The translations under genes were made by a program, and so were the position numbers. Below the pieces are notes generated by a model, which did not search any database, was not told the DNA's origin, and was given only the letters and a program-made list of their open reading frames with translations. Shown in pieces: positions 9,680 through 62,300 of a DNA stretch of 64,000 nt (position 1 is the first letter of the stretch; each line of letters begins with the position of its first letter). The stretch is from Gammaproteobacteria bacterium. GTDB taxonomy: Bacteria; Pseudomonadota; Gammaproteobacteria; Natronospirales; REEB76. The stretch is from assembly GCA_027315405.1 (NCBI GenBank), contig DAHUYB010000087.1:9672-73671 (forward strand), given 5' to 3'.

Positions 9680-9701
9680 GCCGCTGCGATACAGGCAAAC
9701 A

Positions 9702-11063
9702 ATGAGCGACGCGCAGGCCCAATGTTTCAAGGCTTACGATATCCGCGGGCGGGTGCCCAGTGAGCTGGATATGGATCTGGCGGTGCGTATCGGCCGGGCG
9801 TTCGCCGAGTATCTTGATGCGCGCAGCGTGGTGGTGGGACGGGACGTGCGGCTGTCCGGTCCGTCTTTCGCCCAGGCGGTGTCGGCGGGCCTCGCCGCCG
9901 GCGGTGCCGAGGTACTGGACCTGGGGATGTGCGGCACCGAGGAGATCTATCACGCCGTCAACCATCTGCAGTGCGACGGCGGTGTCATGGTCACGGCGAG
10001 TCACAACCCGCCCGACTACAACGGCTTCAAGTTGGTGCGTGCCGGCGCGCGCCCCTTGAGTGAAGACACGGGGTTGCAGGAGATTGCCCGGCGTGCGCTC
10101 AACGACCGGCGCGGGACGCTGTCCGGCGCGGTCGCGATGCGGCCGGTGAGCACCCGCGATGCGTTTGTGGAACAGCTACTCGGTTGCCTGACGGACACCC
10201 TGCGTCCGCTGAAACTGGTAGCGAATCCGGGTAACGGCGCCGCCGGTCCGGTGCTGGAGCAACTCTTTGCACGCCTGCCCGTGCAGGTCACCTGGTTGCA
10301 CCGGGAACCGGACGGCCGTTTCCCCAACGGCGTGCCCAATCCTCTGTTGCCGGAACACCGGGAGGCAACGGCCCGGGTTGTGCAACAAACCGGGGCCGAT
10401 CTCGGCCTTGCCTGGGACGGGGATTTTGACCGCTGCTTCTTTTTCGACGAACACGGCCAGTTCATCGAGGGCTATTACCTGGTGGGATTGTTCGCCGGGA
10501 TTTTCCTGCGCAAGTATCCCGGATCGAAGATCATCCATGACCCGCGCCTGGTGTGGAACACCATCGAGATGGTGGAACGCCTGGGCGGCATCCCCATCGA
10601 GTCCAAATGCGGGCATGCCTTCATCAAGGAGCGCATGCGCACGGAGGATGCGGTCTATGGAGGCGAGATGAGCGCGCACCATTATTTCCGGGAGTTCGCT
10701 TACTGCGACAGCGGCATGATTCCATGGCTGCTGCTGCTGGAACTCCTGTCATCCGCCGATGCACCACTGTCGGAGTTGGTGCGGGCGCGTCAGGATAAAT
10801 TCCCGGTGAGCGGCGAGATCAACCGCAGTGTCGCGGACGCGGACGCCGCCTTGCGGCAGGTTCAGGAACGGTACGCGGGCGAGGCGGAACGCATCTCGTC
10901 CGTGGACGGCGTCAGCATGGAGTTCACGGATTGGCGTTTCAATCTGCGCCGCTCCAACACCGAGCCGCTGCTGCGGCTGAACGTGGAGAGCCGGGGGGAT
11001 GCACGGCTGGTAAAACGCAGGACCGATGAGATTCTGGCGTTGCTGGGCGCCCCCGCAGCCTAG
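9702..11063 (+). CDS. manB: phosphomannomutase/phosphoglucomutase
   Basis: Translation reads ...CFKAYDIRGRVP..., the active-site loop ...VMVTASHNPPDYNGFK..., and ...GLAWDGDFDRCFFFD.... The start at ATG 9702 is chosen over the track start 9654, which overlaps manC. Confidence 0.92.
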   Translation: MSDAQAQCFKAYDIRGRVPSELDMDLAVRIGRAFAEYLDARSVVVGRDVRLSGPSFAQAVSAGLAAGGAEVLDLGMCGTEEIYHAVNHLQCDGGVMVTASHNPPDYNGFKLVRAGARPLSEDTGLQEIARRALNDRRGTLSGAVAMRPVSTRDAFVEQLLGCLTDTLRPLKLVANPGNGAAGPVLEQLFARLPVQVTWLHREPDGRFPNGVPNPLLPEHREATARVVQQTGADLGLAWDGDFDRCFFFDEHGQFIEGYYLVGLFAGIFLRKYPGSKIIHDPRLVWNTIEMVERLGGIPIESKCGHAFIKERMRTEDAVYGGEMSAHHYFREFAYCDSGMIPWLLLLELLSSADAPLSELVRARQDKFPVSGEINRSVADADAALRQVQERYAGEAERISSVDGVSMEFTDWRFNLRRSNTEPLLRLNVESRGDARLVKRRTDEILALLGAPAA

Positions 11064-27886: not shown

Positions 27887-29137
27887 ATGCAGGAGCTGCT
27901 GTTTCTGTGCCATCGGCTTCCGTATCCTCCCAACAAGGGCGACAAGATTCGCTCCTATCACTTATTACGGCATTTTGCCGAGAAATATCGCCTGCACCTC
28001 GGGACATTTGTGGATGACCCGGCGGATTGGCGGTATGTCGAGACGGTCAAGACGCTGTGTGCCGAGACCTGTATTCGCCCCCTGAATCCACTCTGGGCAC
28101 GTCTCAAGGTCTTGACAGCACTCGGGCGGGCAGAACCGCTCACCGTGGCTTATTACCGTGACCGGGTGATGCAACGCTGGGTGGACCGGATCCTGGCGAG
28201 GGCAACGGTGAAGGCAGTGGTAGCGTTTTCATCCGGCATGGCCCCATTCATGCTGCGAGCGGGCAGAGTGCGCCGGATAATGGATTTTGTAGATGTGGAT
28301 TCGGATAAATGGCGCCAATATACCGAAACCCATACAGGTATTGCCAGCATGATTTACCGGCGTGAAGCAAAGTGCCTCGCCGACTTTGAATTACGAGTGG
28401 CTGCCGAATCTGACGCTTGCACATTCGTGTCTGGAGCTGAAGCGGAATTTTTCCGCAAGCATGTTCCCGGCCTTGCGAGCAAGATTCACGGTATCCCCAA
28501 CGGCGTGGATACGGATTATTGGGATCCGATGCGCGATTACCCCAACCCCTACGCGCAAGGTCAGAGGACCCTGGTATTTGTCGGCGCCATGGATTACTGG
28601 GCCAATGCCCAGGGCGCGCAATGGTTTGCTAGCGCCGTCTGGCCACAGATACATAATAGATTTCCCGTTGCACGCTTTTATATTGTGGGGAGTAATCCTT
28701 CCAGGGCGGTAAGTGCGCTCGCCCGCATTGAGGGAGTGGTGATAACCGGTCGTGTCGAGGACGTTCGGCCTTACATATCCCATGCGCACGCCGTTGTCGC
28801 TCCCTTGCGCATCGCCCGCGGCATACAGAACAAGGTGCTGGAAGCGCTGGCCATGGGCAAGGTACTGTTGGCAACACCGCAGGCATACGAGGGTATTGAG
28901 GACTACAAGGAACGCCAGGGCTGTGTAAGTGACTCGGTGGACATTCTGGTGCGGGAGGCCGTGCGCTGGCTGGCGGAACCGACTCCGGCCGAGGTACCGG
29001 CAGTTCGGCAGCGGCTGCTTTCCTCTTATAGCTGGCAAAAGCTTTTTGACCGGTTTGATGTCCTGCTCAATGATGCAGCCGTGCTGGATGAAAGCCCAGC
29101 CGGATTTGCGGCTTCACCGGTTCGGGAGGCGCAGTGA
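27887..29137 (+). CDS. glycosyltransferase, 'stp1' type (PEP-CTERM/EpsH1-associated GT4-like)
   Basis: MQELLFLCHRLPYPPNKGDKIRSYHLLRH is the characteristic N-terminus. The C-terminal GT-B motif is ...APLRIARGIQNKVLEALAMGK.... It sits immediately upstream of xrtA. Confidence 0.85.
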   Translation: MQELLFLCHRLPYPPNKGDKIRSYHLLRHFAEKYRLHLGTFVDDPADWRYVETVKTLCAETCIRPLNPLWARLKVLTALGRAEPLTVAYYRDRVMQRWVDRILARATVKAVVAFSSGMAPFMLRAGRVRRIMDFVDVDSDKWRQYTETHTGIASMIYRREAKCLADFELRVAAESDACTFVSGAEAEFFRKHVPGLASKIHGIPNGVDTDYWDPMRDYPNPYAQGQRTLVFVGAMDYWANAQGAQWFASAVWPQIHNRFPVARFYIVGSNPSRAVSALARIEGVVITGRVEDVRPYISHAHAVVAPLRIARGIQNKVLEALAMGKVLLATPQAYEGIEDYKERQGCVSDSVDILVREAVRWLAEPTPAEVPAVRQRLLSSYSWQKLFDRFDVLLNDAAVLDESPAGFAASPVREAQ

Positions 29138-30711
29138 TGAGCCGGCTACTGGTGGTGAAATCCGGTAATTCAGCCCGCGTATCCGTATGGCAGGCTGCCG
29201 TCTGGGCGTTTGCAATTGTCGTGGTTATTCTCGGCGCCGGTTACTGGCGCACCATCGAATCATTGCTATGGGTATGGGGTCACGATGGAACATACCAATA
29301 TGCCTTTCTTATTTTTCCGCTGAGCATCTGGACCGCGTTCAATTTGCGTCACGAACTCCTGGCAGGCACTCCCAAGCCATGTATCTGGGGGTTGACGATA
29401 GTCGCCGGCCTGGGTTTTATCTGGCTTGTGGGCCAGCTTGTCAGTATCAATCTGGTACAGCATTTTGCCCTGGTCGCGATGTTCCCGGCATTAGTGCTGA
29501 CTTTCTGGGGTGCGCGCGCGGTTCGCGTACTGGCCTTTCCCCTGGGATATCTGGTATTTGCCATCCCATGGGGTGATTCGCTGGTGGGCCCATTACAGGA
29601 TTTCACCGCCCACTTCAGCGTGCGGGCCTTGGAATTGACCGGCACCCCGGTGATTCTCAATGGGCGTGAAATAATCACCCCCACGGCCACCTGGATGGTG
29701 GCGGATGCCTGCAGCGGCGTGAAATTCTTTATCGCCTGTACTGCATTAGGTTGCCTGTACGCATACCTTATATACCAGCGCTGGTGGAAGCGGATACTGT
29801 TTGTGCTGCTGGCGGCGGTGGTCCCCATTATTGCGAACGGCTTGAGGGTATTTTTTACCATCCTCATCGGCGACACCTGGGGCCTCAAATACGCCACCGG
29901 TACGGATCATCTGATATTTGGCTGGCAGTTTTTCGGCGGCGTGCTGGTTATCCTGTTGCTGCTGGGCTGGTTGTTTCGTGATCCTCTTGTCATAACCCGC
30001 CGTGTACCAAGCAATGGCCACAGGGCTTCCCCCTGGCATGGGGCTGTGTGGGCAATCGCCATCGTGCTGGTGATTGCCGGTCCGCTACTTGCGGCATGGA
30101 TACGATTACCCGGCGCCCCGGTTAACCAGGCGCAACTGGCGGCACCCCCAGTGCCCGGTTGGCTCGGACCAGAAAGTCCGCCGGCGAGCTGGAATCCGAG
30201 TTACCGCGGGGCCGCCGCTGAAATACAGGTGGCGTACCGTAACCGCGTCACCGGCGCCAGCATCGAGGTTTTTAATGCACTGTATCTCGGTCGCCCGCGC
30301 CGCGATCATAACCTGATTACCTACGGCAACAATGTCTATGATCCTGCTACGGCGAGAGTGTTGAGCGCTGCCACCCGAAGGATCCCCCTGGCCAGCGGGC
30401 ACTCAGCCCGAGTGCGGGAGCTGCGTCTGTCAACCGCGAACGGTCCGCGCATCGTCTGGTACTGGTACTGTGTCAATGGCCACTGCACAGCTTCCGCCAT
30501 ATTGGTGAAGCTGATGCAGGGTTTTTATGCACTGACAGGACGTGACTCCCGCTCCTCGGTATGGGCGGTCTCGGCAGTTGAAAATGCGGGTGGACTCCAG
30601 GCGTTGCGCACGAGCATGGCGGCTTTCGTACGTGCGGTCCCCGGCATTATCGGACAGGGACCACACCCGGATGAATCAGTTTGGGTGCATTCAGCGGCAA
30701 GCCGGCCATGA
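29134..30711 (+). CDS. xrtA: exosortase A fused to an EpsI-family domain
   Basis: 525 aa with about 8 TM segments. The exosortase motifs are read directly: ...VADACSGVKFFIA... (Cys), ...IANGLRVFFTILIG... (Arg) and ...TDHLIFGWQFFGG... (His). A ~200-aa C-terminal soluble part, ...VWYWYCVNGHCTASAILVKL..., resembles EpsI. The start is either GTG 29134 or ATG 29137. Confidence 0.92.
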   Translation: MMSRLLVVKSGNSARVSVWQAAVWAFAIVVVILGAGYWRTIESLLWVWGHDGTYQYAFLIFPLSIWTAFNLRHELLAGTPKPCIWGLTIVAGLGFIWLVGQLVSINLVQHFALVAMFPALVLTFWGARAVRVLAFPLGYLVFAIPWGDSLVGPLQDFTAHFSVRALELTGTPVILNGREIITPTATWMVADACSGVKFFIACTALGCLYAYLIYQRWWKRILFVLLAAVVPIIANGLRVFFTILIGDTWGLKYATGTDHLIFGWQFFGGVLVILLLLGWLFRDPLVITRRVPSNGHRASPWHGAVWAIAIVLVIAGPLLAAWIRLPGAPVNQAQLAAPPVPGWLGPESPPASWNPSYRGAAAEIQVAYRNRVTGASIEVFNALYLGRPRRDHNLITYGNNVYDPATARVLSAATRRIPLASGHSARVRELRLSTANGPRIVWYWYCVNGHCTASAILVKLMQGFYALTGRDSRSSVWAVSAVENAGGLQALRTSMAAFVRAVPGIIGQGPHPDESVWVHSAASRP

Positions 30712-49266: not shown

Positions 49267-50150
49267 TGCTTACTATAGATGTAATAGTACGCACACTTGC
49301 GGATTCATTCAGATCCGAAATGCTGTTTCGCGCGCTGGATAGCATTCAAAATCAACACGGCATCACTGCTCGACCCATCGTCGTAGTCAATGGTGAAAGT
49401 TATGATCAGCGGACGCTGAATGCACTGAGAAACCGTCCAGGTATTCGATTTCATTATCAGCAACTGGCTTCGGCTGGTCTGGCATTTAAAGCGGGCTGTC
49501 GTCTTGTTACCGCTCCCTTTTTTGCTTTTCTGGATGACGATGATGTTTTTGTTGAAGATGTATTGCTAAAGCCCGTCATGTGGTTCGAGAACAATCCACA
49601 GTGCGATGTAGTGATCACCAACAGGTACTATGTTAAAGATAACGGCCCGGTGATTGAATTTGCCTGTCTTGCTGATCATGCTGTTCAGCCAGTATTGAGT
49701 TTGTTAGATGAGAATTGGCTTTCTGCAGGCACTGGGTTTTTCCGCACAAGCACCACTATTCCTGCTTTCATGAGCGTGGACAAAGGTCATCAAGAGTGGA
49801 CCCATCTTGCTTATCGGTTGTGTACCGAGGGCAGGCAGCTGCACTTTATGGATGTACCCACGGCACTTGTCTATGACACCCCCGGTTCCATGTCCAAGAA
49901 GATGGTGCACCAAGAGGCAGCATTGGATCTGCTGCAACTTATTAGACATGATTCCAGAATGGATATTCTGGTACACAAGAAAGCCGAGTTCAAATACCGA
50001 AACGCGCTACATGTACTGGCTATGAACTACTGGAGACTTGGGGACCACAAGCGTGCATGGTGCTGTCATCTGGCTAGCTTGCGTCCGCCCCATACCTTCA
50101 AATATATTTTTTTCACACGCAAACTGCTCTGGCCTTTTGGCACAAGCTGA
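49263..50150 (+). CDS. glycosyltransferase family 2
   Basis: ATGA overlap with wzx. ...IDVIVRTL... and ...FFAFLDDDDVF... (DxD) indicate a GT-A fold. Confidence 0.75.
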   Translation: MMLTIDVIVRTLADSFRSEMLFRALDSIQNQHGITARPIVVVNGESYDQRTLNALRNRPGIRFHYQQLASAGLAFKAGCRLVTAPFFAFLDDDDVFVEDVLLKPVMWFENNPQCDVVITNRYYVKDNGPVIEFACLADHAVQPVLSLLDENWLSAGTGFFRTSTTIPAFMSVDKGHQEWTHLAYRLCTEGRQLHFMDVPTALVYDTPGSMSKKMVHQEAALDLLQLIRHDSRMDILVHKKAEFKYRNALHVLAMNYWRLGDHKRAWCCHLASLRPPHTFKYIFFTRKLLWPFGTS

Positions 50151-50160
50151 GTCGTAATAA

Positions 50161-51393
50161 TCATGATGCATCAATTCGAGATGATGAAGACCTCATAAGG
50201 GCGTGTGAAAAGCTCCCTGCGTTCAACAGCACCGCCAGACACAACATCGCTGCGGAACGCATTGCTGCACGCCATTGATGGGTGTGCAGTGATCGCTGTA
50301 ATGTCCAAAAGATGCCACGCGCTATTGAAGGTGCTAACGATTTTGCACCGGTAGCTTTAAGTGTAAAGCTAAGATTTATGATCAGGGAGTATGGACGCGG
50401 TAGCCTCCAGGGGCCAATATCCAAGGCCTTCGATAAGATGGATTTAACCTGGCTTGTAGGTTGTTCAATTTCGTTCAGGCGATCGAGCCCGTCTTTCATA
50501 TCCATCATTGCCTCATTCGTAAGTCCTTGCCGAAACATGATGCAGCTTCTTTGAAGTAAAGCCAGCCCATGCTCAGTTTCAGTCAGGACTGGTAGGTCTG
50601 TTCCTGGTTCATGGGGAAGATAAATTGCCAGGGGACACTCATCTCTTACCAAACGAAATATCCGTTGCTGATACTGTAATTGTATCGCTGATCTTTGATG
50701 GACGCTGTGAACCTTCATCGTTGGTCCTCGAGGGCCTGGATGGTCACGTAATACAAATGTCGGTTTTTGAATATTAAGCGCTTTGAAGCGCCGTGCCAGC
50801 CTAAGTAGCATTTCACTATCCTGGGCCCTCAGCAACGTTGGGTTGAAAGGTCCTGCTTCAGCGAAACAGCGTTTTGGAATTAACATGCCCTGGAACAAGG
50901 TATTGATGCCTTCCATGCTTCGGATTAGAAACAAATCCACGGGCCACGCAGGTATAGTTTTTAAACTCCATTTGTCCTGCTGCCAGATGTCGCTCGTACC
51001 CGAATATACATAGTTAGTGCTATAAGAAAAGTCTGTCTCTGAATGGGCGGTAAGGAAATCTATGTGGCTTTGAAGGGCATCCGGCAACGCCACGTCATCG
51101 TCATCGAATATCCAGATATGGGAACTCTGAGCCAGTGGGATTCCTAAATTTAGTGCAGAGGATTTACCACGATTTTCGGTCCTGTAATAACGAATCTGTT
51201 TGTTGTAGTGTTCCGCAACTTCGGCAGTTTCATCAGTCGAACCATCATCCACGACGATGATTTCATCGGGGGGGCGAGTCTGATGCAAGAGGCTATCCAA
51301 TGCCTGCGGCAGATAGTGAGCGCGGTTGTAGGTCGCGATAACAACCGACACGCTGATAGCAATTGTTTTTGGGCTTGAGCGATTAGCCATCAT
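50161..51393 (-). CDS. glycosyltransferase family 2 (only minus-strand gene of the locus)
   Basis: ...VSVVIATYNRAHYLPQALDSLLHQTRPPDEIIVVDDGSTDET... and ...IWIFDDDDV.... It is convergent with the preceding GT2, leaving a 10-nt gap. Confidence 0.88.
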   Translation of the reverse strand: MMANRSSPKTIAISVSVVIATYNRAHYLPQALDSLLHQTRPPDEIIVVDDGSTDETAEVAEHYNKQIRYYRTENRGKSSALNLGIPLAQSSHIWIFDDDDVALPDALQSHIDFLTAHSETDFSYSTNYVYSGTSDIWQQDKWSLKTIPAWPVDLFLIRSMEGINTLFQGMLIPKRCFAEAGPFNPTLLRAQDSEMLLRLARRFKALNIQKPTFVLRDHPGPRGPTMKVHSVHQRSAIQLQYQQRIFRLVRDECPLAIYLPHEPGTDLPVLTETEHGLALLQRSCIMFRQGLTNEAMMDMKDGLDRLNEIEQPTSQVKSILSKALDIGPWRLPRPYSLIINLSFTLKATGAKSLAPSIARGIFWTLQRSLHTHQWRAAMRSAAMLCLAVLLNAGSFSHALMRSSSSRIDAS

Positions 51394-51566
51394 TGCGTAT
51401 TAAATTGTAGCGGTAGCTTATGCTAACGTATGATTATAATGTACATTAGCAGTTACTGACTCAGCACAAGATTACAGGAATGGAACTGCATTACATGTTG
51501 TGTAAACAACAGTTGCCGCCCTATGAAAGGGCATCGTTTAATTGATATTCAATCAAGCCCGATATT

Positions 51567-52427
51567 ATGATCCCTGCTATCCAATATTTTAACCTTCCAG
51601 CCGAACTCTTAACATCAGAAATTGAGGAAGAATTCTTTTCTTCGTTGAAATTACGCAATGGGACGTATAAAACGACTTTTCAGAAACGCTTCTCAGATAT
51701 AAATAAGCAGATCCTAGTACTGCTGAAAACTACTGATATAAAAGTAGATAATATACTGGATATTGGCATCTCTTCAGGGATAAGTACACTTGAACTGGTT
51801 GAGGACTTAAATTCAGCGGGCTATACAAATCATATCGTCGGTACGGATTTGCTAATGGACGCTTATATCGTGCATATATTTCCAGGTTGTTATGCACTTG
51901 TAGATAACACCGGCTATCCACTAAGATTTGATTTGTTCAAATGGAGTATCAAACCCTGGATTATAAGAACAGACTATCATAATGGTTTCTTCATTTTCCG
52001 TAAATTCATCAATCTTATATTTGTATATCGCGCAAAGAATCTGATTGCCAAATCCAAGCATGCGGATGTCCAGAAGGTGAAACTTATCACACCAAAGCTA
52101 TTAAGTCACACTAATGTGGTTATTCAGATGGGTGATATAACTAAATTTAATTATTCGTATAGAGAAAAGTTCAATTTCATAAGGGCTGCAAATATATTGA
52201 ACGTGAGTTATTTTACGAAGGCGGAATTAGTCGCAATAATTAACAATATTAAACATTATTTTACGAAGCCAAGTGGAACTTTATTGGTAGTGCGCACCCA
52301 TGAAGACGGGAGCAACCATGGCAGCTTGTTTAATATTGCTAACCATAGCAAGTGTGAAGTTATTGGGCGATTTGGAGCGGGTTCAGAGATAGAAGATATT
52401 GTACTTGCGTCAATAAATAAGCACTGA
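51567..52427 (+). CDS. putative class I SAM-dependent methyltransferase
   Basis: 286 aa in very AT-rich DNA. Motif I-like is NILDIGISSGISTLEL, the acidic end of beta-2 is IVGTDL, and later blocks are FIRAANILNV and GTLLVV. The assignment rests on motif resemblance only. Confidence 0.55.
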   Translation: MIPAIQYFNLPAELLTSEIEEEFFSSLKLRNGTYKTTFQKRFSDINKQILVLLKTTDIKVDNILDIGISSGISTLELVEDLNSAGYTNHIVGTDLLMDAYIVHIFPGCYALVDNTGYPLRFDLFKWSIKPWIIRTDYHNGFFIFRKFINLIFVYRAKNLIAKSKHADVQKVKLITPKLLSHTNVVIQMGDITKFNYSYREKFNFIRAANILNVSYFTKAELVAIINNIKHYFTKPSGTLLVVRTHEDGSNHGSLFNIANHSKCEVIGRFGAGSEIEDIVLASINKH

Positions 52428-52548
52428 CAAATTTTATTTAACCTTACATTCCCAAGGTGAATATGAACGGATTGGAAGCGCGGATTATAGATTCCCTTGG
52501 TTAAAGCCGGTGGAATCTATAAAGATGCATTAGTATTCGGAGACTGAA

Positions 52549-53199
52549 ATGCAAGCAGATGTCCATTCTAGGCAACTGATTATCGGATGTGGAACAGGTA
52601 GATGTGGCACTGTATCTTTGATGCAGTTTTTGAATAGCCAAGTGGATGTTTCCATACTCCATGAAGGGCTGACCGCCGATAAAATCCACCACCTCATCCC
52701 ATGGTATAAAGGGGAAACTCAGCTGTGGTCTTGGATGATTGAACTTGAGAAATTGTCAAACGGAGCAAGATGGTACGGGGATATCGGTTTTTACTATCTC
52801 CCTTATCTTCCGAAGATATTTGACCGTTATCCAAAATCACGTGCCATCTGCCTCGAACGGCGCAAGAAGGCAGTGATCCAAAGTTTCCTTAAAAAAACGA
52901 CTGGAAGGAATCACTGGTACATGCATAAGGGCGTAGGTTGGAAAGAGGATGATGAATGGGATAACACTTTTCCTTACTATGCAGAGCTGAACAAATCCAA
53001 GGCCATTGGTTTATATTGGGAGCAATATCACAGTACAGCTTTGGAATATTGCGCACTGTTTCCGGATCAGTTTATGTTGGTGCCTACATCGGCACTGAAT
53101 ACGACAAAGGGCCGACTGAAGATATTAGGGTTTATCGGCTACGATAGAGAAGCCATGCTTGATGGGCAGTTCCGAGCGAATAACATCCGCCCTAAATGA
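52549..53199 (+). CDS. hypothetical protein, possibly a divergent sulfotransferase-fold enzyme (ST3-like)
   Basis: 216 aa. The N-terminal P-loop-like segment LIIGCGTGRCGTVSLMQFL sits where the PSB loop would be. AICLERRKKAVIQSF resembles an R-x7-S 3'-PB segment. The similarity is weak and motif-level only. Confidence 0.45.
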   Translation: MQADVHSRQLIIGCGTGRCGTVSLMQFLNSQVDVSILHEGLTADKIHHLIPWYKGETQLWSWMIELEKLSNGARWYGDIGFYYLPYLPKIFDRYPKSRAICLERRKKAVIQSFLKKTTGRNHWYMHKGVGWKEDDEWDNTFPYYAELNKSKAIGLYWEQYHSTALEYCALFPDQFMLVPTSALNTTKGRLKILGFIGYDREAMLDGQFRANNIRPK

Positions 53200-53306
53200 T
53201 GGGGCTTGATTGTTTATGGTCTTGAAGATTACGGAATTCTTAAGGTGGTCCACCTGATATCTGATCGTGGTGCTATGTCAGATTTGATACTCATTCGGGA
53301 TATGAA

Positions 53307-53996
53307 ATGATATTGCTGATCACGCAAGTGATGATATTGTGTTTTCTAATTATTTCTGTAGCGCTTTGGGGAGGGTATTTTCCTCATCCTTCCCCCTTAA
53401 TTCGACGTTGGTTGCCGCCACGTAAGCGCTGGCCTGAAGCGCAGATTCGGCGATGGCTGAAGACGGGGAAATTTCAGCGGGCATTTCTGAATTATTTTTA
53501 TCGTGATCCAGAGCGCACACCACCTCTCGGCAACAGCATTCTCGCTCCCGCTGACGGGGCGGTAACTAGTGTTGAGGTGCGCGACGGAGTGCGCTATCTG
53601 GTGATTGCACTCAGTTTCTGGGACATGCATGTACAACGCAGCCCCGTGTCCGGCAGAGTGGTCAAAGTGGAGTCACATGGAAGTGATTTTATGGACGGCG
53701 AAGGACGGAAATTCGCTTTTCTCAGAGAGAAACCCTGCCCGGTACAGAAGCGTGTGGTTATTGCCACGAGTGTGGGAGAAATTGCGGTGCGGCTGATTAC
53801 CAGTCTTGCAGCGCGTCGTATTGAAGTCTGGGTGCGGGAAGGGGGGAGACTTGTGCGTGGACAGAGAATCGGCCGGATTTTGCTGGGCAGCACCGTGGTG
53901 CTTGAGCTACCTGCAACCATAAACCTTAGCGTACAAGTGGGTGAGCGTGTTAAAGCGGGTGAAACCGTTGTTGCACAGGAAATGATCTCAGTATGA
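53307..53996 (+). CDS. phosphatidylserine decarboxylase family protein (short, membrane-anchored type)
   Basis: 229 aa with an N-terminal TM segment. ...ILAPADGAVTSVE..., ...WDMHVQRSPVSGRV... and ...GQRIGRILLGSTVVLELP... are present. The last contains the LGST self-cleavage motif of pyruvoyl PSDs. Confidence 0.75.
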   Translation: MILLITQVMILCFLIISVALWGGYFPHPSPLIRRWLPPRKRWPEAQIRRWLKTGKFQRAFLNYFYRDPERTPPLGNSILAPADGAVTSVEVRDGVRYLVIALSFWDMHVQRSPVSGRVVKVESHGSDFMDGEGRKFAFLREKPCPVQKRVVIATSVGEIAVRLITSLAARRIEVWVREGGRLVRGQRIGRILLGSTVVLELPATINLSVQVGERVKAGETVVAQEMISV

Positions 53997-54196
53997 ACGC
54001 ATTCTGGTGGACATCCGGGCATCTGGGTTGGGGCATTTTTGCACTGATCGCGTTTACGGGAATATGGTGGTTGTTGTTCGATTTGTGCTGGCGCTTGGTT
54101 ACCATCAGGATAAACCGGCTCTTGACCGTGATGGGCATAGGATGGTTGGTTGGCGTTGCCTGTATTTTACTGGGTTTCTATGTGGCTGGCTGGTAA
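53993..54196 (+). CDS. small two-TM membrane protein, translationally coupled to the PSD-like gene
   Basis: ATGA overlap with the upstream gene. 67 aa, Trp-rich, with two hydrophobic helices: GWGIFALIAFTGIWWLLF and VMGIGWLVGVACILLGFYVAGW. Confidence 0.6.
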   Translation: MNAFWWTSGHLGWGIFALIAFTGIWWLLFDLCWRLVTIRINRLLTVMGIGWLVGVACILLGFYVAGW

Positions 54197-54427: not shown

Positions 54428-57073
54428 TTGAAGTCAGCACTGTGTCTACCGTTCGATTTCGCCTGGCTGTCTTGGCGAGCCCTGGGTCGGGACAGCCTGA
54501 TACACGGCAAGAGGGCTGGCGGAAATTCTCTTGATTTCCCCAAAATAGCCAGGTTGCCGTTGACGGGGTTATCCATTGTATGTGTGTGTGCTGGCGCGGC
54601 GCTCACGATAGGTGTTGCGCAAGCCGGCACGCTGCTAGTCACCAATAACCTCATCAATGAGGGCTCACAAGCGCAGGCTAATGTTCCGGTTACCTTCGGG
54701 CAGATTTTCAAGGGCGGTGATGTGCCTGCCGGCGAGACACTCAGTGCGACATTAGGCGGTCAGCCTATCCAGTTGCAGATTGATACCAAAGCCACCAACC
54801 CGGACGGCAGTCTGCGCCATGCGGTATTGACGGCGCTAGTTCCCTCGATCTCCGGTAATTCCACCGCGCCGCTTGCCTTGTCCACCGCAGCACCTTCGAC
54901 GCCAGGCTCTCCAGTTACGCTTACCCAATTGCTTGCCACCTCGTTTGACGCCACCGTGGATATCAATATCGGCGGGACGGATTACACTGCAAGTGCGAAA
55001 CAGTTGCTACAGGCGAACCAAGCTGCCTGTGCTCCCTGGAACACCGCTTGCAATGTGTGGCTCTCCGGCCCCTTGGTCAGCGAGTGGATTGTGGGCGGGC
55101 CGGTGAAAAGCTCGGGAGGCACAGCGAACCCCAACCTCCAGGTCTATTTTGATGTACGAGCTTATGCGGGGAACCCCATCAATCGGGTGCGTGTGAATGT
55201 GGTCATCGAGAACGACTGGGCGTATACGCCGCAGACAAGTATTACTTATAACGCTACCCTGACATCAGGGTCGGATACCTACACCATCAGCAACCTCACC
55301 CACTATGCCTATGCCCGCTGGCATCACGTGCTGTGGTGGAACGGCAGCAATCCTGACATTTATGTCCAGCAGGACACCCAGTACATTCAATCCACCGGGG
55401 CAGTTTCGCGCTACGAGGTGCTGACTCCGGACAACTCTTTCCTGAGCAATCGTATCCAGTCGTGCTTACCTATGCAGCATTGTGACCAGACCTTGACCAT
55501 GGGTAATACCGGCGCGCAGGACGGCATTGGACCTCTGCCGCGCTGGACCTCGACCTATATCGTTGATCCGGATTATCGCGCCTATAATTGGATGCTCGCC
55601 GACGACGATGCCATTGGAGCCTATTCCGTGCATTACCGGGATCAGGCAACAGGGTTGCCGCTCAGCATTATCAAACATCCGTATGTGACTACCGCTGCCT
55701 GGAACTATGCCAATTCCGTAGCGAAACAAAATCCCACTACTTGGGGTAAAGATCTGCTGCCGAATTGCAACAGTAGTAGTGCGAATTACTGCGTGAACAA
55801 TCCCGACCAGTTCGACAACGCCCATCACCCCTCAGTTGCGTTTGTTTCTTACATGGTTACCGGGGATTACTACTATCTTGAAGAAATGCAATATGTAGCT
55901 TCCTACCTGGAGCTGTGGGCCAACCCACCCTATCGTGGCTATTCACAGGGGTTGGTTTATGCCGCCGAGGAACAGACTCGCGGTAAGGCGTGGACAATGC
56001 GCAGCATCGGCGATGCCGCTTACCTTACCCCGGACGCTGACCCCATGAAAGCCGAGTTCACCGCGGATATCAACAATGCGGTTGCGGATTTCATTGCGCA
56101 GACGGCTAACAATCCAAACGCCAATCCACTTGGCCTGGTGTCGAATTATTTCTACTCCGTTAACGGAGGCACCAATAATGGTGCGGCGCCCTGGCAGGAC
56201 GATTTCTTGACTTGGGCGGCTGGCCATTTGGCGGAACAAGGTGTTCCGGGCGCCAGTACCCTGCTGAATTGGAAGGCGCAATTCCAGATTGGCCTGATGA
56301 CTGACTGGTTCAATAATCCGACTCAGGGATATTGCTGGTTGGAGGCTTCCGCCTATTCACCACAGTTCAAGGATTCGTCGGGGAATTTCTTACCAACATT
56401 TACGGCTGTGTACCAGGTCAATTTCCCGACCTTGTATGGACTGACATGCAACAGTCCGCAAATGGTGACCGCCATGGGCTTACTCGAACATGCTACATGG
56501 CAGGCGGGAGAGATGCACGGCTATCCTAATTCAGCTACCGGATTCCCGGCCAACCTGCAGATCGGACTAGCCGCGGCTGCGGCCAGCAATTTGCCGAACG
56601 CTCAGCAGGCCTGGCAGACTTTCCAGGGCCGGAGCATCCAGCCGACCCCTCCCAACAGCTATAACGACTACCCTAATTTTGCCGTCCTACCCCGTTACTT
56701 GCCGGCGGTCCCCATCGTAAATCTCTATGCCAGCCCCAATCCGGTGGCGGCGGCGGGAGATACCACTACCCTGTACTGGAATGCCAGCAATGCCACCAGT
56801 TGTTCGGCCCCCTGGACCGGCAGTACCGCGACTTCGGGTCAGATGACCGTGACGGTTAGCGCGAATGCTGCCTTCCCGATCACCTGCACCGGACCGAATG
56901 GCTCCACCAACGACCCCGTGAGCGTTTCCATTGGCAGCGGCACGACGACGACGCCCCCCCCACCTCCGGCCACGTCCCCACCCGCGGCAGGGGCGGGAGG
57001 CGGCGCCATGAGTTGGTTGGCCCTGGTGTTCCTGATGACCGTGGCTGGGTGGGCAAGGGCAAAGCGCCGCTGA
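54428..57073 (+). CDS. large secreted protein of unrecognised family ('LpB'), paralog of 44344-46470, with extra Ig-like domain, Pro/Thr linker and C-terminal sorting signal
   Basis: TTG 54428 lies 7 nt after AGGAG. The signal-like segment is ...LPLTGLSIVCVCAGAALTIGVAQA/GT. The C-terminus reads ...TTTTPPPPPATSPPAAGAGGGAMSWLALVFLMTVAGWARAKRR. The start codon is uncertain. Confidence 0.8.
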   Translation: MKSALCLPFDFAWLSWRALGRDSLIHGKRAGGNSLDFPKIARLPLTGLSIVCVCAGAALTIGVAQAGTLLVTNNLINEGSQAQANVPVTFGQIFKGGDVPAGETLSATLGGQPIQLQIDTKATNPDGSLRHAVLTALVPSISGNSTAPLALSTAAPSTPGSPVTLTQLLATSFDATVDINIGGTDYTASAKQLLQANQAACAPWNTACNVWLSGPLVSEWIVGGPVKSSGGTANPNLQVYFDVRAYAGNPINRVRVNVVIENDWAYTPQTSITYNATLTSGSDTYTISNLTHYAYARWHHVLWWNGSNPDIYVQQDTQYIQSTGAVSRYEVLTPDNSFLSNRIQSCLPMQHCDQTLTMGNTGAQDGIGPLPRWTSTYIVDPDYRAYNWMLADDDAIGAYSVHYRDQATGLPLSIIKHPYVTTAAWNYANSVAKQNPTTWGKDLLPNCNSSSANYCVNNPDQFDNAHHPSVAFVSYMVTGDYYYLEEMQYVASYLELWANPPYRGYSQGLVYAAEEQTRGKAWTMRSIGDAAYLTPDADPMKAEFTADINNAVADFIAQTANNPNANPLGLVSNYFYSVNGGTNNGAAPWQDDFLTWAAGHLAEQGVPGASTLLNWKAQFQIGLMTDWFNNPTQGYCWLEASAYSPQFKDSSGNFLPTFTAVYQVNFPTLYGLTCNSPQMVTAMGLLEHATWQAGEMHGYPNSATGFPANLQIGLAAAAASNLPNAQQAWQTFQGRSIQPTPPNSYNDYPNFAVLPRYLPAVPIVNLYASPNPVAAAGDTTTLYWNASNATSCSAPWTGSTATSGQMTVTVSANAAFPITCTGPNGSTNDPVSVSIGSGTTTTPPPPPATSPPAAGAGGGAMSWLALVFLMTVAGWARAKRR

Positions 57074-57622
57074 ATCCGCCCGTTTGCGTTACCTGAACTG
57101 GCACAAATTAGCGGTTCATTTCCTTGGCGAGGTTGTGGTATGGCATGAAATACCCGCTCAGTCCCGCTGAAATAAGCAGGCACCGCGTGCAAACTGCCGG
57201 CCCATCATAACAACCTGCTGGAAGGGCAATCCCGACTTGCCGTCACGGCCTTAAGCTCATACGGATACCTTACGCAGCGATACTGCTTCCGGCAGGACGC
57301 AACGCTATCGTCGCATCCTCCATACCAACCTCCGTTAAAGTGCACCTTGCACCGCAGACTCGGTGCTGCTTACGCCCGCCGCGGCTACCGCGAGCGATCC
57401 TTGGAGTTCCTAAAGGAGACTCCTCGCCTCGGGCTTGCCCTTCCTTAGAAGACCCCTCATTTTTTGGCCTGTATCGTGAACTGGATCCGCTTCCTGAACC
57501 CCGCCTCACCAGCCGGGCTCCAGGTCTCGCGGGCTCCACGCGTCCGGGAGCGGTAATCCATAATATGTTTGGGTACCTCTGGTACACTGAACATAATATC
57601 TACCAAGGTGAAACACATCGCC

Positions 57623-58854: not shown

Positions 58855-60936
58855 ATGCACATTATCGTAATTGTTGGCTATCTTATTGGAACCATTGCTT
58901 TCCTGGCATGCAGTTTGTTGCTTGTCAGCAGTTGGCGTGGCCAACGCACTGGCGCCTTGCTGATACTGGCAACCGCGGTATCCGCACTGTGGTGCGCCTT
59001 TCTGGCCTATGCCGCGTGGCAAGAAACAATTCCGGTAGCCTGGGTCTTTATTGCTGAAATCCTGCGCTATGGAGCGTGGCTCGGCTTTGTGACGGCATTA
59101 TTTGGGTCATGGAAGATGCCGGGTTTGCTCAGAGGATTACGCTGGTGCGTTCACATCCTGTGGGTTGCGCTCGCGCTTTACTGTCTGTGGCCGCTTACGG
59201 GACTTCCACAGCATACCGCCATACGCTTCGTAATCAGCGTGCCGGTTATTGGCATGCTGATTCTTCCCTTGGCCGGATTGGTTTTTCTGGAACAGCTTTA
59301 CCGCAATGTCCAGCCAGAACAGCGCTGGGCTCTTAAATTTCTGATGATTGGTCTTGGCAGTATATTTGCCTACGATATCTTTCTGTATTCTTACGCGGCG
59401 TTATATAAAGAAATCAGCCTGAGCGCATGGGCCGCGCGCGGGTTCGTCAATGCCCTGGTGGTGCCATTACTCGTAGTAGCTGCTGCGCGTAATGCGCAAT
59501 GGTCCTTACAGGTCGCGGTTTCCCGTCGTGTGGTCTTTTATTCCAGCAGCTTATTTGCGGTTTCAATTTATATTATTGCCACTGCGATTGGCGGATATTA
59601 CGTCCGCATGTATGGCGGTGATTGGGGGCGGGTTGCGGAAATAACACTTGCCTGTTGCGCTGTACTGATTCTGTTCCTGATCGCGTTTTCAGGGCACGCA
59701 AGGTCACGGTTGAAAATGTTTTTGCACAAGAACTTCTTCAATTATCGGCATGATTATCGCCAGGAATGGCTGCTCCTCACTGCAACATTATCCAGTGGAA
59801 ACGGAGAACTAAGCCTGCATGCGATTCAGGCCCTGGGTCAGATCATGGACAGCCCAGCGGGGATCTTGTTTCTTGGAAATGAATCCGGTGAATTCGTTTC
59901 GGTCGCCAATTGGAACATGCCCGATCCGGCGGATCTGAAATTCAATTCGACCTTACCACTATTTGAGCGCATGCGTGAACGGCAGTGGATCTATGATTTT
60001 GGCCAACAGCCGCCGTTGGGAGAGGAAAAGCTCGCGGCACCGATTGAATTGAGCGTGCTGCCAAATGCTTGGCTGATGGTGCCGCTGATTCTGGATGCGC
60101 AACTCATGGGTTTTGTGGTGTTGGCTCAGGCCCGGGCGCGGCGCAAACTTGATTGGGAAGATATAGATCTATTGCGAACCGCCGGTCACCAGGTGGCCAG
60201 TACCCTGGCACAGGCGATCAATGCCCGGCGTTTGACGGAGACGCGACAGTTCGAGGGCTTCAACCGGCTCACCGCGTTTGTAATGCACGACATAAAGAAT
60301 CTGGTTGCGCAGCAGTCTTTATTGATCAAAAACGCGGAACGCCACAAGCATAACCAGGTGTTTGTGGACGATATGCTGGCAACTGTCGAAAATTCCGTTC
60401 AACGGATGACAGGGCTGCTCGATCAATTGCGTGGTGACACAACATCGAAGCCGCGCAACCGTGTGCACCTCAATGCCGTTATTGAACGGCTGATTAAGGA
60501 GCGCGGATTACAGTCACCAAAACCAGTATATGTGGCAACAGCCGAGGATCTGTGTGTATTGGCAGATACCGAGCAGCTGATAACAGTACTTGGCCATATC
60601 ATTCGCAATGCCCAGGAGGCAACGCCGAGTGACGGACACGTGCAAGTCCGCGTGCGCCGCGATAAGGATCGCGTGTGCATCGAGGTTGAAGATGACGGGG
60701 AAGGCATGGATGAGGGGTTTGTCCGTAACCGTCTGTTTGAACCTTTTTTTACCACCAAATCCAGCAAGGGCATGGGTATAGGCGCTTATCAAGCAAGGGA
60801 ATATGCTAGGTCACTGGGCGGGAACGTGCGTGTCAACAGCACGCCTGGCCACGGTACGGTATTTACCATGCTGCTGCCGTTGGATATTTCACCCCATGAG
60901 ACTTTCGAGGATGGCTGGAAGAGGGCATCATCTTGA
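58855..60936 (+). CDS. prsK: PEP-CTERM-system sensor histidine kinase
   Basis: 693 aa. The N-terminal ~300 aa are polytopic membrane, followed by a GAF-like middle. The H-box is ...FNRLTAFVMHDIKNL... and the HATPase part is ...EVEDDGEGMD..., ...FFTTKSSKGMGIGAY.... It sits directly upstream of prsR. Confidence 0.88.
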   Translation: MHIIVIVGYLIGTIAFLACSLLLVSSWRGQRTGALLILATAVSALWCAFLAYAAWQETIPVAWVFIAEILRYGAWLGFVTALFGSWKMPGLLRGLRWCVHILWVALALYCLWPLTGLPQHTAIRFVISVPVIGMLILPLAGLVFLEQLYRNVQPEQRWALKFLMIGLGSIFAYDIFLYSYAALYKEISLSAWAARGFVNALVVPLLVVAAARNAQWSLQVAVSRRVVFYSSSLFAVSIYIIATAIGGYYVRMYGGDWGRVAEITLACCAVLILFLIAFSGHARSRLKMFLHKNFFNYRHDYRQEWLLLTATLSSGNGELSLHAIQALGQIMDSPAGILFLGNESGEFVSVANWNMPDPADLKFNSTLPLFERMRERQWIYDFGQQPPLGEEKLAAPIELSVLPNAWLMVPLILDAQLMGFVVLAQARARRKLDWEDIDLLRTAGHQVASTLAQAINARRLTETRQFEGFNRLTAFVMHDIKNLVAQQSLLIKNAERHKHNQVFVDDMLATVENSVQRMTGLLDQLRGDTTSKPRNRVHLNAVIERLIKERGLQSPKPVYVATAEDLCVLADTEQLITVLGHIIRNAQEATPSDGHVQVRVRRDKDRVCIEVEDDGEGMDEGFVRNRLFEPFFTTKSSKGMGIGAYQAREYARSLGGNVRVNSTPGHGTVFTMLLPLDISPHETFEDGWKRASS

Positions 60937-62300
60937 CCGAATCCGCACGCACGTTACTAATCGTAGAGGATGACCCCGGCTTGCAAAGCCAATTACGCTG
61001 GAGTTTTGATAGTTACAACGTCATCATTGCCGGGGACCAAGCTGCTGCGCTTGCTGAAGTGCGCCGTCATGAGCCAGCTGTGGTATTGCAGGACCTGGGC
61101 CTTCCGCCGGACCCCACTGGTACGAGCGAAGGCTTTGCTTCACTCTTGGAGATTCTTCGTCAGGCGCCTTATACCAAAATTATCGTGATCACTGGCAACG
61201 GTGACCGGGATAATGCCTTGCGATCCATAGAACTGGGGGCCTATGATTTCTGCTCCAAGCCTTTGGACGTGGAGGTTCTGCGCATCATAGCGGCACGCGC
61301 TTTCCAATTGCACGAGCTGGAAGTGGAAAACCACAGTTTCAAGGGCCTGTCGGCCTCACTGCTGGATGGCATTATAGCCAAAAGCGAGTCAATGCTGAGC
61401 CTCTGCCGGCTTATCGAGAAGGTTAGCAACACCAACGCAACTGTGCTGCTGCTCGGAGAAACAGGTACCGGCAAAGAACTGTTTGCGCGCGCGTTACATC
61501 GTCTCAGCCCGCGCCGTGATGCGACATTCACCGCCATCAATTGCGCCGCCATACCTGAAAACCTGTTGGAATCGGAATTATTCGGCTACGAGAAGGGCGC
61601 TTACACCGGAGCCAGCAAGCAGACAAAGGGGAAAATAGAGCTTGCACAAGGAGGCACACTGCTGTTGGATGAGATCGGCGACATGCCGCTTGCATTACAG
61701 GCAAAGCTCTTGCGTTTCCTCCAGGAGCGGGTGCTGGAACGTGTCGGAGGACGCGAGGAAATACCGGTGGATGTGCGAATAGTCTGTGCCACGCATCAGG
61801 ACCTTCAGGCGCTCATTCATGCGGGGCGATTTCGTGAAGACTTATATTACCGCATCAGCGAGGTCGTCATGACGATTCCGCCGTTGCGAGAAAGGAACGG
61901 CGACGCGGTGCTGCTTGCACGGCATTTTCTTGAGCTGGCAGTCAAGCGTCATGGTCGGCCCATACGCAGTTTTACTCCCGAAGCATTGCGGGCGATTGAC
62001 AAACATCATTGGAAAGGGAATGTCCGTGAACTCGAGAATGCGATAAATAGTGCAGTAATCATGACCGATGGAAGCCAGATTACACCTAATGATTTGGGTC
62101 TGGCAGCGGTCCCGGGTGACGAGAATATACCGACTTTGCGTCAAGCGCGTATGGCGGCTGAAAAGCGGGCGATACAACAGGCACTGGCAAGAACAGAAGG
62201 AAACCTGTCAAGGGTAGCGGATTTGCTCGGCATAACCCGGCCAACACTTTACGATCTATTGGAAAAATTGGGATTTGATAAACCCGGCGATGCACGTTGA
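60933..62300 (+). CDS. prsR: sigma-54-dependent response regulator of the PEP-CTERM system
   Basis: The TTG start overlaps the prsK stop (TTGA). The receiver is LLIVEDDPGL...D. The AAA+ part has Walker A LLGETGTGKE, a GAYTGA loop and Walker B LLLDEIGD. The C-terminal Fis-type HTH is ...NLSRVADLLGITRPTLYDLL.... Confidence 0.9.
   Translation: MTESARTLLIVEDDPGLQSQLRWSFDSYNVIIAGDQAAALAEVRRHEPAVVLQDLGLPPDPTGTSEGFASLLEILRQAPYTKIIVITGNGDRDNALRSIELGAYDFCSKPLDVEVLRIIAARAFQLHELEVENHSFKGLSASLLDGIIAKSESMLSLCRLIEKVSNTNATVLLLGETGTGKELFARALHRLSPRRDATFTAINCAAIPENLLESELFGYEKGAYTGASKQTKGKIELAQGGTLLLDEIGDMPLALQAKLLRFLQERVLERVGGREEIPVDVRIVCATHQDLQALIHAGRFREDLYYRISEVVMTIPPLRERNGDAVLLARHFLELAVKRHGRPIRSFTPEALRAIDKHHWKGNVRELENAINSAVIMTDGSQITPNDLGLAAVPGDENIPTLRQARMAAEKRAIQQALARTEGNLSRVADLLGITRPTLYDLLEKLGFDKPGDAR

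Follow-up and report, generated by a model that had tools for sequence, protein, structure and literature searches.

A GlyGly-CTERM-class tail on a putative polysaccharide-cleaving enzyme encoded in an exosortase A-type exopolysaccharide locus

The window analysed here is the whole 64-kb stretch (64,000 nucleotides) of contig DAHUYB010000087.1 (GCA_027315405.1) from an uncultured soil-type gammaproteobacterium. It contains a complete exosortase A (XrtA)-type exopolysaccharide (EPS) locus, and a gene in its 3′ part encodes a secreted enzyme-like protein, hereafter the cargo, that ends in a glycine-rich C-terminal tail (Table 1). The genes of the locus encode TviB/TviC-like sugar-nucleotide enzymes, a TIGR03013 priming transferase, an export protein, a chain-length determinant, a tyrosine kinase, a TIGR03016 outer-membrane protein, a TIGR03015 ATPase, a deacetylase, a FemAB-like protein, the stp1, stp2 and stp3 glycosyltransferases, an amidotransferase, an O-ligase-like protein and a flippase. 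The xrtA gene lies 24 kb upstream of the cargo gene, and a WecB-like epimerase, PrsK, PrsR and the start of PrsT are encoded 3′ of it. An earlier, sequence-only reading of this DNA had placed an exosortase A in cis with the tail, and the TIGR03109 score of XrtA bears this out.

Table 1. Features of the window discussed in the text, in window coordinates
Feature	Coordinates	Strand	Evidence or remark
Exosortase A (XrtA) fused to an EpsI domain	29134..30711	+	TIGR03109 289.8 bits vs cutoff 208; TIGR02914 (EpsI) 76 vs 42.8
Tail-less cargo paralog, 740 aa, ~40% identity	44248..46470	+	tblastn; PcRGLX_1st 23.0 vs 22.1; no sorting tail
Phosphatidylserine-decarboxylase (PSD)-family gene (229 aa) and overlapping gene for a 67-aa two-helix membrane protein	53307..54196	+	directly 5′ of the cargo gene
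Cargo: PcRGLX/PL26-like secreted enzyme of 881 aa, bearing a C-terminal extension and the sorting tail	54428..57073	+	ORF
N-terminal extension and Sec signal peptide, residues 1-66, predicted cleavage between ...GVAQA and GT	54428..54625	+	ortholog comparison
Ig-like beta-sandwich domain, ~70 residues	56735..56941	+	model strands at residues 779-835, pLDDT ~70; absent from tail-less Rhodanobacteraceae homologs
Thr/Pro-rich unstructured linker, residues 839-856	56942..56995	+	sequence; pLDDT <50; unconserved among orthologs
GlyGly-CTERM-class sorting domain GGGAMSWLALVFLMTVAGWARAKRR, residues 857-881 and stop codon	56996..57073	+	TIGR03501 matches residues 857-877
Non-coding gap of 495 bp where L035 and L006 bear a PEP-CTERM gene	57074..57568	.	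locus comparison
PrsK histidine kinase	58855..60936	+	TIGR02916 709.7 bits
PrsR sigma-54-dependent regulator	60933..62300	+	TIGR02915 680.2 bits
PrsT, start	~62395, runs past window end	+	TIGR02917 564.9 bits on L042

The cargo open reading frame (ORF) begins with a TTG codon that has an AGGAGA ribosome-binding site 6 nt upstream, and its TGA stop codon occupies positions 57071-57073. A hydrophobic segment ending in A-x-A lies just before a conserved GT[VL]VTN sequence in all full-length orthologs and is a Sec signal peptide as judged by eye. The N-terminal extension of the cargo is conserved in orthologs P0001-P0006; about 40 conserved residues (54428-54545) precede the signal-peptide core, and P0154, the 820-residue protein called by NCBI for a close ortholog, begins within the signal peptide and so drops this extension. 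The protein terminates in ...GAGGGAMSWLALVFLMTVAGWARAKRR, and its last 43 residues, TTTTPPPPPATSPPAAGAGGGAMSWLALVFLMTVAGWARAKRR (nucleotides 56942-57073, starting at residue 839 and including the stop codon), are exactly those quoted in the sequence-only reading, with a GGG motif, a hydrophobic stretch, a basic cluster and no Pro-Glu-Pro. The GGG motif (residues 857-859) runs on as A-M-S-W-L... and abuts a 17-residue uncharged stretch, after which R-A-K-R-R closes the protein. No residue follows the basic cluster of the cargo, GlyGly-CTERM proteins usually having 0-5 residues there (PMC3237569). Cys is absent from the last 43 residues, Pro-Glu-Pro is absent from all ortholog tails as well, and the AlphaFold model predicts a terminal helix at residues 863-880. 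In a six-frame scan of all ORF ends of the window for a hydrophobic stretch with a basic cluster, the cargo was the sole real gene matched, the other two matches being in non-coding frames; none of the matches has a PEP motif, in agreement with the earlier statement that no protein of the window carries a canonical PEP-CTERM tail.

Scoring with the NCBIfam models, for which the curated cutoffs are 15.5 bits (GlyGly-CTERM, TIGR03501) and 16 bits (PEP-CTERM, TIGR02595), distinguishes the two kinds of tail. TIGR03501 is the only NCBIfam sorting-signal model that matches the cargo, giving 23.1 bits with the 25-residue core, 20.9 bits with the 43-residue tail and 15.2 bits with the whole protein. 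The score falls as more of the protein is included, as expected from the compositional bias correction on the Gly/Pro/Thr-rich linker. TIGR02595 gives no match at E ≤ 10 with either the whole protein or the tail, and the two positive controls, PEP-CTERM proteins from neighbouring genes in this lineage, reach 21.1 and 19.1 bits. Textbook-looking tails on other tested proteins are below the cutoff or unmatched in the whole protein and score 18.7-21.0 bits as cores. Haft and Varghese have described that the TIGR03501 model misses some true examples and that sub-threshold tails are promoted by family alignment (PMC3237569). These results support the assignment of the cargo tail to the GlyGly-CTERM class, formally borderline at the whole-protein cutoff, as the sequence-only reading had proposed in calling the tail GlyGly-CTERM-like rather than PEP-CTERM. 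The tail also resembles MYXO-CTERM, the signal of the myxosortase system, which is likewise a Gly-rich tripartite C-terminal signal on surface proteins dependent on type II secretion (the T2SS), and the MYXO-CTERM model weakly cross-matches some tails of cargo orthologs. However, MYXO-CTERM needs an invariant Cys in its motif, and so the cargo tail, which lacks Cys, cannot be of the MYXO type.

The homolog survey lists 120 matches, the 18 closest of which share 59-96% identity with the cargo. The same cargo is also present on contig DAHVEO010000071.1 (GCA_027315565.1). The tail is kept in about 15 full-length orthologs among these 18, with the consensus K-G-G-G-A-M-x-W-L-x-L-V-x-L-M-x-L-x-G-W-S-R-x-R-R, where a Gly and a Leu are invariant positions and one Trp and one Leu are near-invariant. 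The Thr/Pro/Ser linker preceding it is hypervariable and cannot be aligned among the orthologs. Since the tail is conserved while the linker varies, the tail is not a chance feature. About 100 more distant homologs among the matches listed, mostly from Rhodanobacteraceae with 52-60% identity, are tail-less and either end after ...NYPNFAVLPR or bear other extensions, indicating that the Ig-like domain, the linker and the tail form a clade-specific suffix. Tail-less homologs are also found in Salinisphaera. Sorting domains have been described as occurring in this way, as a suffix on some members of a protein family (PMC3237569). Distant cargo homologs in a marine gammaproteobacterial metagenome-assembled genome (MAG; L015) and in a Thiohalobacter MAG (L016) end in GGGGG-A-[MV]-Q...RR, preceded by a choice-of-anchor U domain, and neither lies in a recognisable XrtA locus.

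TIGR03501 matches nine of ten full-length orthologs with 7.5-17.7 bits, one of the ten being above the cutoff. When ortholog tails are scored alone, three of eight pass and three more reach 14.2-15.1 bits, and none of the ortholog tails tested matches PEP-CTERM above noise. On other tripartite models, P0006 scores 20.1 with GC_trans_RRR and P0015 scores 18.0 with MYXO-CTERM, below the cutoff of 20. The marginal whole-protein scores in the lineage and the better scores of these two orthologs on other models would be compatible with an undescribed enzyme, neither rhombosortase nor exosortase, that reads a lineage-specific K-G-G-G-A-M-x-W-L tail in these soil Gammaproteobacteria. Such an enzyme is improbable, however, because the core of the cargo tail clearly passes TIGR03501 and is not of the MYXO type, and because published data show an almost strict co-occurrence of rhombosortase and the GlyGly-CTERM signal (PMC3237569; bioRxiv 10.1101/2023.06.07.544157).

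The cargo is not the only Gly-tailed protein of the strain. The sequence L042 matches the final 7,086 bases of the window at 100% identity and reaches 4.4 kb further. At 8372-10201 (window-equivalent ~65286-67115) it carries the gene of an unrelated 609-residue repeat protein, located next after prsT and convergent with it. The tail of this protein has a poly-Gly/hydrophobic/RRKR arrangement (quoted as GGGGGLGPLNLLLLAALLRRKR... and ...GSGGGGGLGPLNLLLLAALLRRKRFSCREHVAT) and by itself scores only 14.1 bits with TIGR03501. The cargo and the 609-residue protein are the only two Gly-tailed proteins seen in the window strain. Gammaproteobacterial homologs of the 609-residue protein end in GGGGALGFLSLALLGLPLLKKRR-type tails scoring 18.7-19.7 bits with TIGR03501, and homologs from other phyla have PEP-CTERM or T9SS domains instead. 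The same slot of L035, a relative locus that is 72% identical, encodes a cadherin/tandem-95 adhesin that ends in GGGGALGLLSLAVLTGLSLQHKHRR, with 21.0 bits for TIGR03501 and a weak match to rhombotarget A. These observations suggest that the lineage uses the signal on several unrelated proteins, and such a many-to-one pattern goes with a rhombosortase. The slot beside the Prs regulators looks variable and seems to house Gly-tailed surface proteins.

Rhombosortase is present in 104 of 108 GlyGly-CTERM genomes and adjoins its target mainly in single-target cases (PMC3237569). The rhombosortase of Vibrio cholerae cuts VesB at the GG motif, and the new C-terminus gains a glycerophosphoethanolamine-containing moiety, after which the T2SS puts VesB on the cell surface (PMC6219818, PMC13393428). 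The cargo shares with targets of the GlyGly-CTERM/rhombosortase system (RrtA, RssP), such as VesB, a Gly motif abutting a transmembrane helix and an Arg/Lys cluster at the extreme C-terminus, and its core passes TIGR03501. It is likewise a signal-peptide-bearing, putatively hydrolytic enzyme with an unstructured linker and a suffix found on only some family members. It differs in a whole-protein score just under the cutoff and in the carrier, which is a PL26-like enzyme encoded inside an XrtA EPS locus. No rhomboid-like gene lies within the 64-kb window. The only polytopic ORFs there are SecY, a DASS transporter, EpsB_2, XrtA, the O-ligase-like protein, the flippase and PrsK, and a rhombosortase in cis was rejected because all of them are otherwise explained. 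There is no rhomboid Pfam match among the called genes of the related loci L035-L045, and two unannotated ORFs of L045 are soluble proteins.

The lack of a rhombosortase in the sequences examined (the window, the flanks of relatives and 826 kb scanned for motifs) is consistent with the tail being an uncleaved C-terminal anchor, in which the helix and a cytoplasmic Arg/Lys cluster would tether the exported enzyme at the periplasmic face of the inner membrane. The cargo would then sit near Wzx/Wzy-type EPS assembly, with the Gly run and the Thr/Pro linker as a flexible stalk and with no sorting protease involved. Most orthologs being under the GlyGly-CTERM cutoff, and several having 6-15 extra residues past the basic cluster, are also consistent with an anchor, and enzymes that trim EPS are often periplasmic. 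However, a plain anchor needs hydrophobicity only, and neither an invariant Gly abutting the helix nor a conserved Trp and Leu. Furthermore, the same tail type is found on unrelated neighbouring surface proteins and their homologs, and homologs of the cargo in other lineages have acquired Gly tails after a choice-of-anchor domain, an arrangement typical of sorted surface proteins. An anchor is therefore unlikely, but it keeps appreciable weight, as no rhombosortase was found in the sequences examined.

XrtA has canonical PEP-CTERM clients of its own in the neighbourhood, namely the two proteins used as positive controls. The 19.1-bit protein is encoded after PrsT in L042, ~3.7 kb past the window end, and is 229 residues long, ending in ...NVPEPAALGMFGLGILMIGLLLGLRRRMR. 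The 21.1-bit protein is encoded in L035 (13154-14041) between the cargo and epimerase genes and is 295 residues long, ending in ...IPEPGVLGMFGLGLIGIMFAVRMRRR. The Oleiagrimonas locus L006 bears a PEP-CTERM gene (8663-9430) at the same position as in L035. The L042 and L035 genes both have a near-perfect sigma-54 promoter (TGGCAC-N5-TTGCT, 10/11 positions) 50-75 bp before the start codon (L042 10680-10695, TGGCACGATGCTTGCT; L035 13079-13094, TGGCACGCTACTTGCT), consistent with control by the sigma-54 activator PrsR. No comparable sigma-54 site is found upstream of the cargo gene or of the other Gly-tailed gene, and a scan for sigma-70 promoters and terminators around the cargo gene yielded nothing above the shuffled expectation. 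At the position of the L035 and L006 genes the window has a non-coding gap, in which tblastn with the L035 and L042 PEP-CTERM proteins detects no remnant. A decayed PEP-CTERM gene in the gap was rejected on this ground, and the window has lost the gene of this position without a detectable remnant.

The sequence-only reading had offered two explanations of the tail, a rhombosortase encoded elsewhere and an XrtA that accepts a non-PEP signal; the evidence favours the former and lends no support to the latter. The tail shares its tripartite architecture with PEP-CTERM signals, and its gene lies within an EPS locus that has the full XrtA/PrsK/PrsR/PrsT set. This co-location, together with the two Gly-tailed genes that flank prsK-prsR-prsT, is the sole support for acceptance of the cargo tail by XrtA itself. 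The cargo has neither a Pro-Glu-Pro motif nor a TIGR02595 match, and its gene lacks the sigma-54 promoter of the true PEP-CTERM genes of the lineage. The XrtA of the window is typical for its family, with a high score and with canonical clients nearby under such promoters, Rhodanobacteraceae with the same type of XrtA locus retain the enzyme without the tail, and Gly-tailed homologs occur outside visible XrtA loci. To our knowledge, all described exosortase signals are Pro-containing motifs. Processing of the cargo by XrtA is therefore highly improbable, and the specificity of exosortase A is not challenged by these results.

The enzymatic part of the cargo was assigned by comparison with known folds. 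From N- to C-terminus, the AlphaFold model (mean pLDDT 63, pTM 0.65) has a beta domain, then a helical domain and a second, small beta domain, and last the terminal helix, which a disordered linker joins to the rest. When the model is compared with the PDB by Foldseek, the PL26 exo-rhamnogalacturonan lyase PcRGLX (5xqg) ranks first (E 8e-5, probability 0.98), with a TM-score of only 0.21, and the next matches are GH88/GH105 (alpha/alpha)6 enzymes. The model suggests that, as in PcRGLX (5xqg/5xq3), a helical barrel comes after the N-terminal beta domain; sequence identity is ~10%, and that TM-score comes from a medium-confidence model. PcRGLX is a fungal, pectin-degrading enzyme, whereas the cargo is bacterial and associated with an EPS locus. 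The Pfam model PcRGLX_1st (PF19501) gives 20.0 with the cargo against a cutoff of 22.1, and a sequence search of the PDB with the cargo found no meaningful match. These comparisons suggest with moderate strength that the cargo is a polysaccharide-cleaving enzyme acting on the EPS of the locus. The window also encodes three sulfotransferases (33860, 43325 and 52549) and a pectate-lyase-like protein; together with the gene content of the locus, the sulfotransferases suggest that the EPS is probably acidic and sulfated. The cargo has a tail-less paralog in the window, and the Rhodanobacteraceae loci likewise contain two copies of the cargo-type gene.

These observations lead to the explanation, which we consider probable, that the cargo is a PL26-like enzyme cleaving EPS and that its sorting is done by a rhombosortase whose gene lies elsewhere in the genome. 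The cargo would be exported by Sec as a carbohydrate-cleaving enzyme that belongs functionally to the XrtA EPS locus, and the enzyme of this lineage would have gained a suffix made of the Ig-like domain, the Thr/Pro linker and the GlyGly-CTERM-class domain. The tail would most likely first retain the exported cargo in the inner membrane, and the rhombosortase would then cut it at the Gly motif. By analogy with VesB, the new C-terminus may receive a lipid-type modification, and the T2SS may then export the cargo to the cell surface. Proximity to xrtA would thus reflect what the cargo acts on and not how it is sorted.

Several points weigh against a rhombosortase-sorted EPS enzyme. The whole-protein TIGR03501 score of 15.2 bits lies under 15.5 bits in the way in which annotation pipelines apply the cutoff, and the NCBI pipeline labels a close ortholog 'hypothetical protein'. 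Nine of the ten full-length orthologs are under the cutoff, one of them without any match, and several go beyond the usual range of residues after the basic cluster. The fold assignment relies on a model with a mean pLDDT of 63 and on a TM-score of 0.21. No rhomboid-like gene is present in the window or in the 10 kb past the Gly-tail gene in a close relative, and a scan of 826 kb for the G-x-S-G...H-x-x-G-x-x-x-G motif combined with hydropathy, which is a crude heuristic, was negative. The cognate rhombosortase of the cargo is thus assumed by analogy.

A tail that seems wrong for the local sortase presents a tension that is largely illusory. XrtA clients are normally dispersed through genomes and not encoded beside xrtA, and canonical PEP-CTERM genes with sigma-54 promoters are found close beyond the window and, in relatives, beside the cargo gene. 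In addition, the cargo gene has no such promoter, and Gly-tailed homologs occur away from visible XrtA loci. Therefore, the cross-talk between two sorting systems that the sequence-only reading had envisaged is better termed co-location, and the bacterium most likely operates two ordinary systems of protein sorting in parallel. If a rhombosortase does sort the cargo, the PL26-like enzyme of the EPS locus would be a new cargo family for the GlyGly-CTERM/rhombosortase system, and one biofilm-matrix locus could host clients of two C-terminal sorting systems. It would also follow that compositionally biased linkers, by lowering the whole-protein score, cause annotation pipelines to overlook such tails. 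Only if the genome had no rhombosortase would there be a new question of what processes the Gly-rich tails.

The PSD-family gene and the overlapping gene of the 67-residue protein directly precede the cargo gene. PSD models give the 229-residue product at most 143.5 bits, and it misses every NCBIfam equivalog cutoff, including that of the archaeosortase-system PSD model NF038088 (105.6 against 240). Its position looked suggestive because rhombosortase products have an ethanolamine-lipid anchor and PssD is required by archaeosortase substrates (PMC7157517). A full-text literature search found no paper connecting exosortase loci and PSD. The gene of the 67-residue protein is translationally coupled to the PSD-family gene. 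Both genes are conserved together in the XrtA-type loci of the lineage, of Rhodanobacteraceae and of Oleiagrimonas, usually beside a PL26-like gene, and they stay close to the cargo gene in rearranged relatives. A self-contained lipid-anchoring module made of the PSD-family protein, the 67-residue protein and the tailed cargo was rejected because the pair also adjoins tail-less homologs in Rhodanobacteraceae and Oleiagrimonas, indicating that it is a feature of the locus and not of the tail. The PSD-family gene could supply an ethanolamine-lipid for anchoring of protein or EPS. It is conceivable, but very improbable, that the Gly-rich tails of the lineage are functionally tied to the XrtA EPS system. 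This would be so if no rhombosortase existed and XrtA or an unknown enzyme processed the tails, or if rhombosortase-sorted and exosortase-sorted proteins were deliberately co-encoded for one matrix; the PSD paralog might then supply the ethanolamine-lipid acceptor.

The GC content is ~0.45 over 50000-54000 and 0.52-0.64 elsewhere in the window. This block, which varies in content among relatives, encodes GT2 glycosyltransferases, a sulfotransferase-like protein and an unknown protein of 286 residues. The low GC content and the variable content suggest that the block is a cassette exchanged horizontally and specifying the polymer.

The distant homologs of L015 (4467-10454) and L016 (3-4781) are encoded in huge frames of 1,996 and at least 1,593 codons from stop to stop, which include a homolog of the catalytic region of the cargo. 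In L043 (19845-20660; GCA_054638455.1), only the last ~269 codons of the cargo gene are left, with in-frame stop codons upstream and an unrelated 507-residue ORF abutting, and the cargo gene may be disrupted in this strain. The tail sequence of the remnant is intact, and PrsK, PrsR and the epimerase of L043 are 96-98% identical to those of the window.

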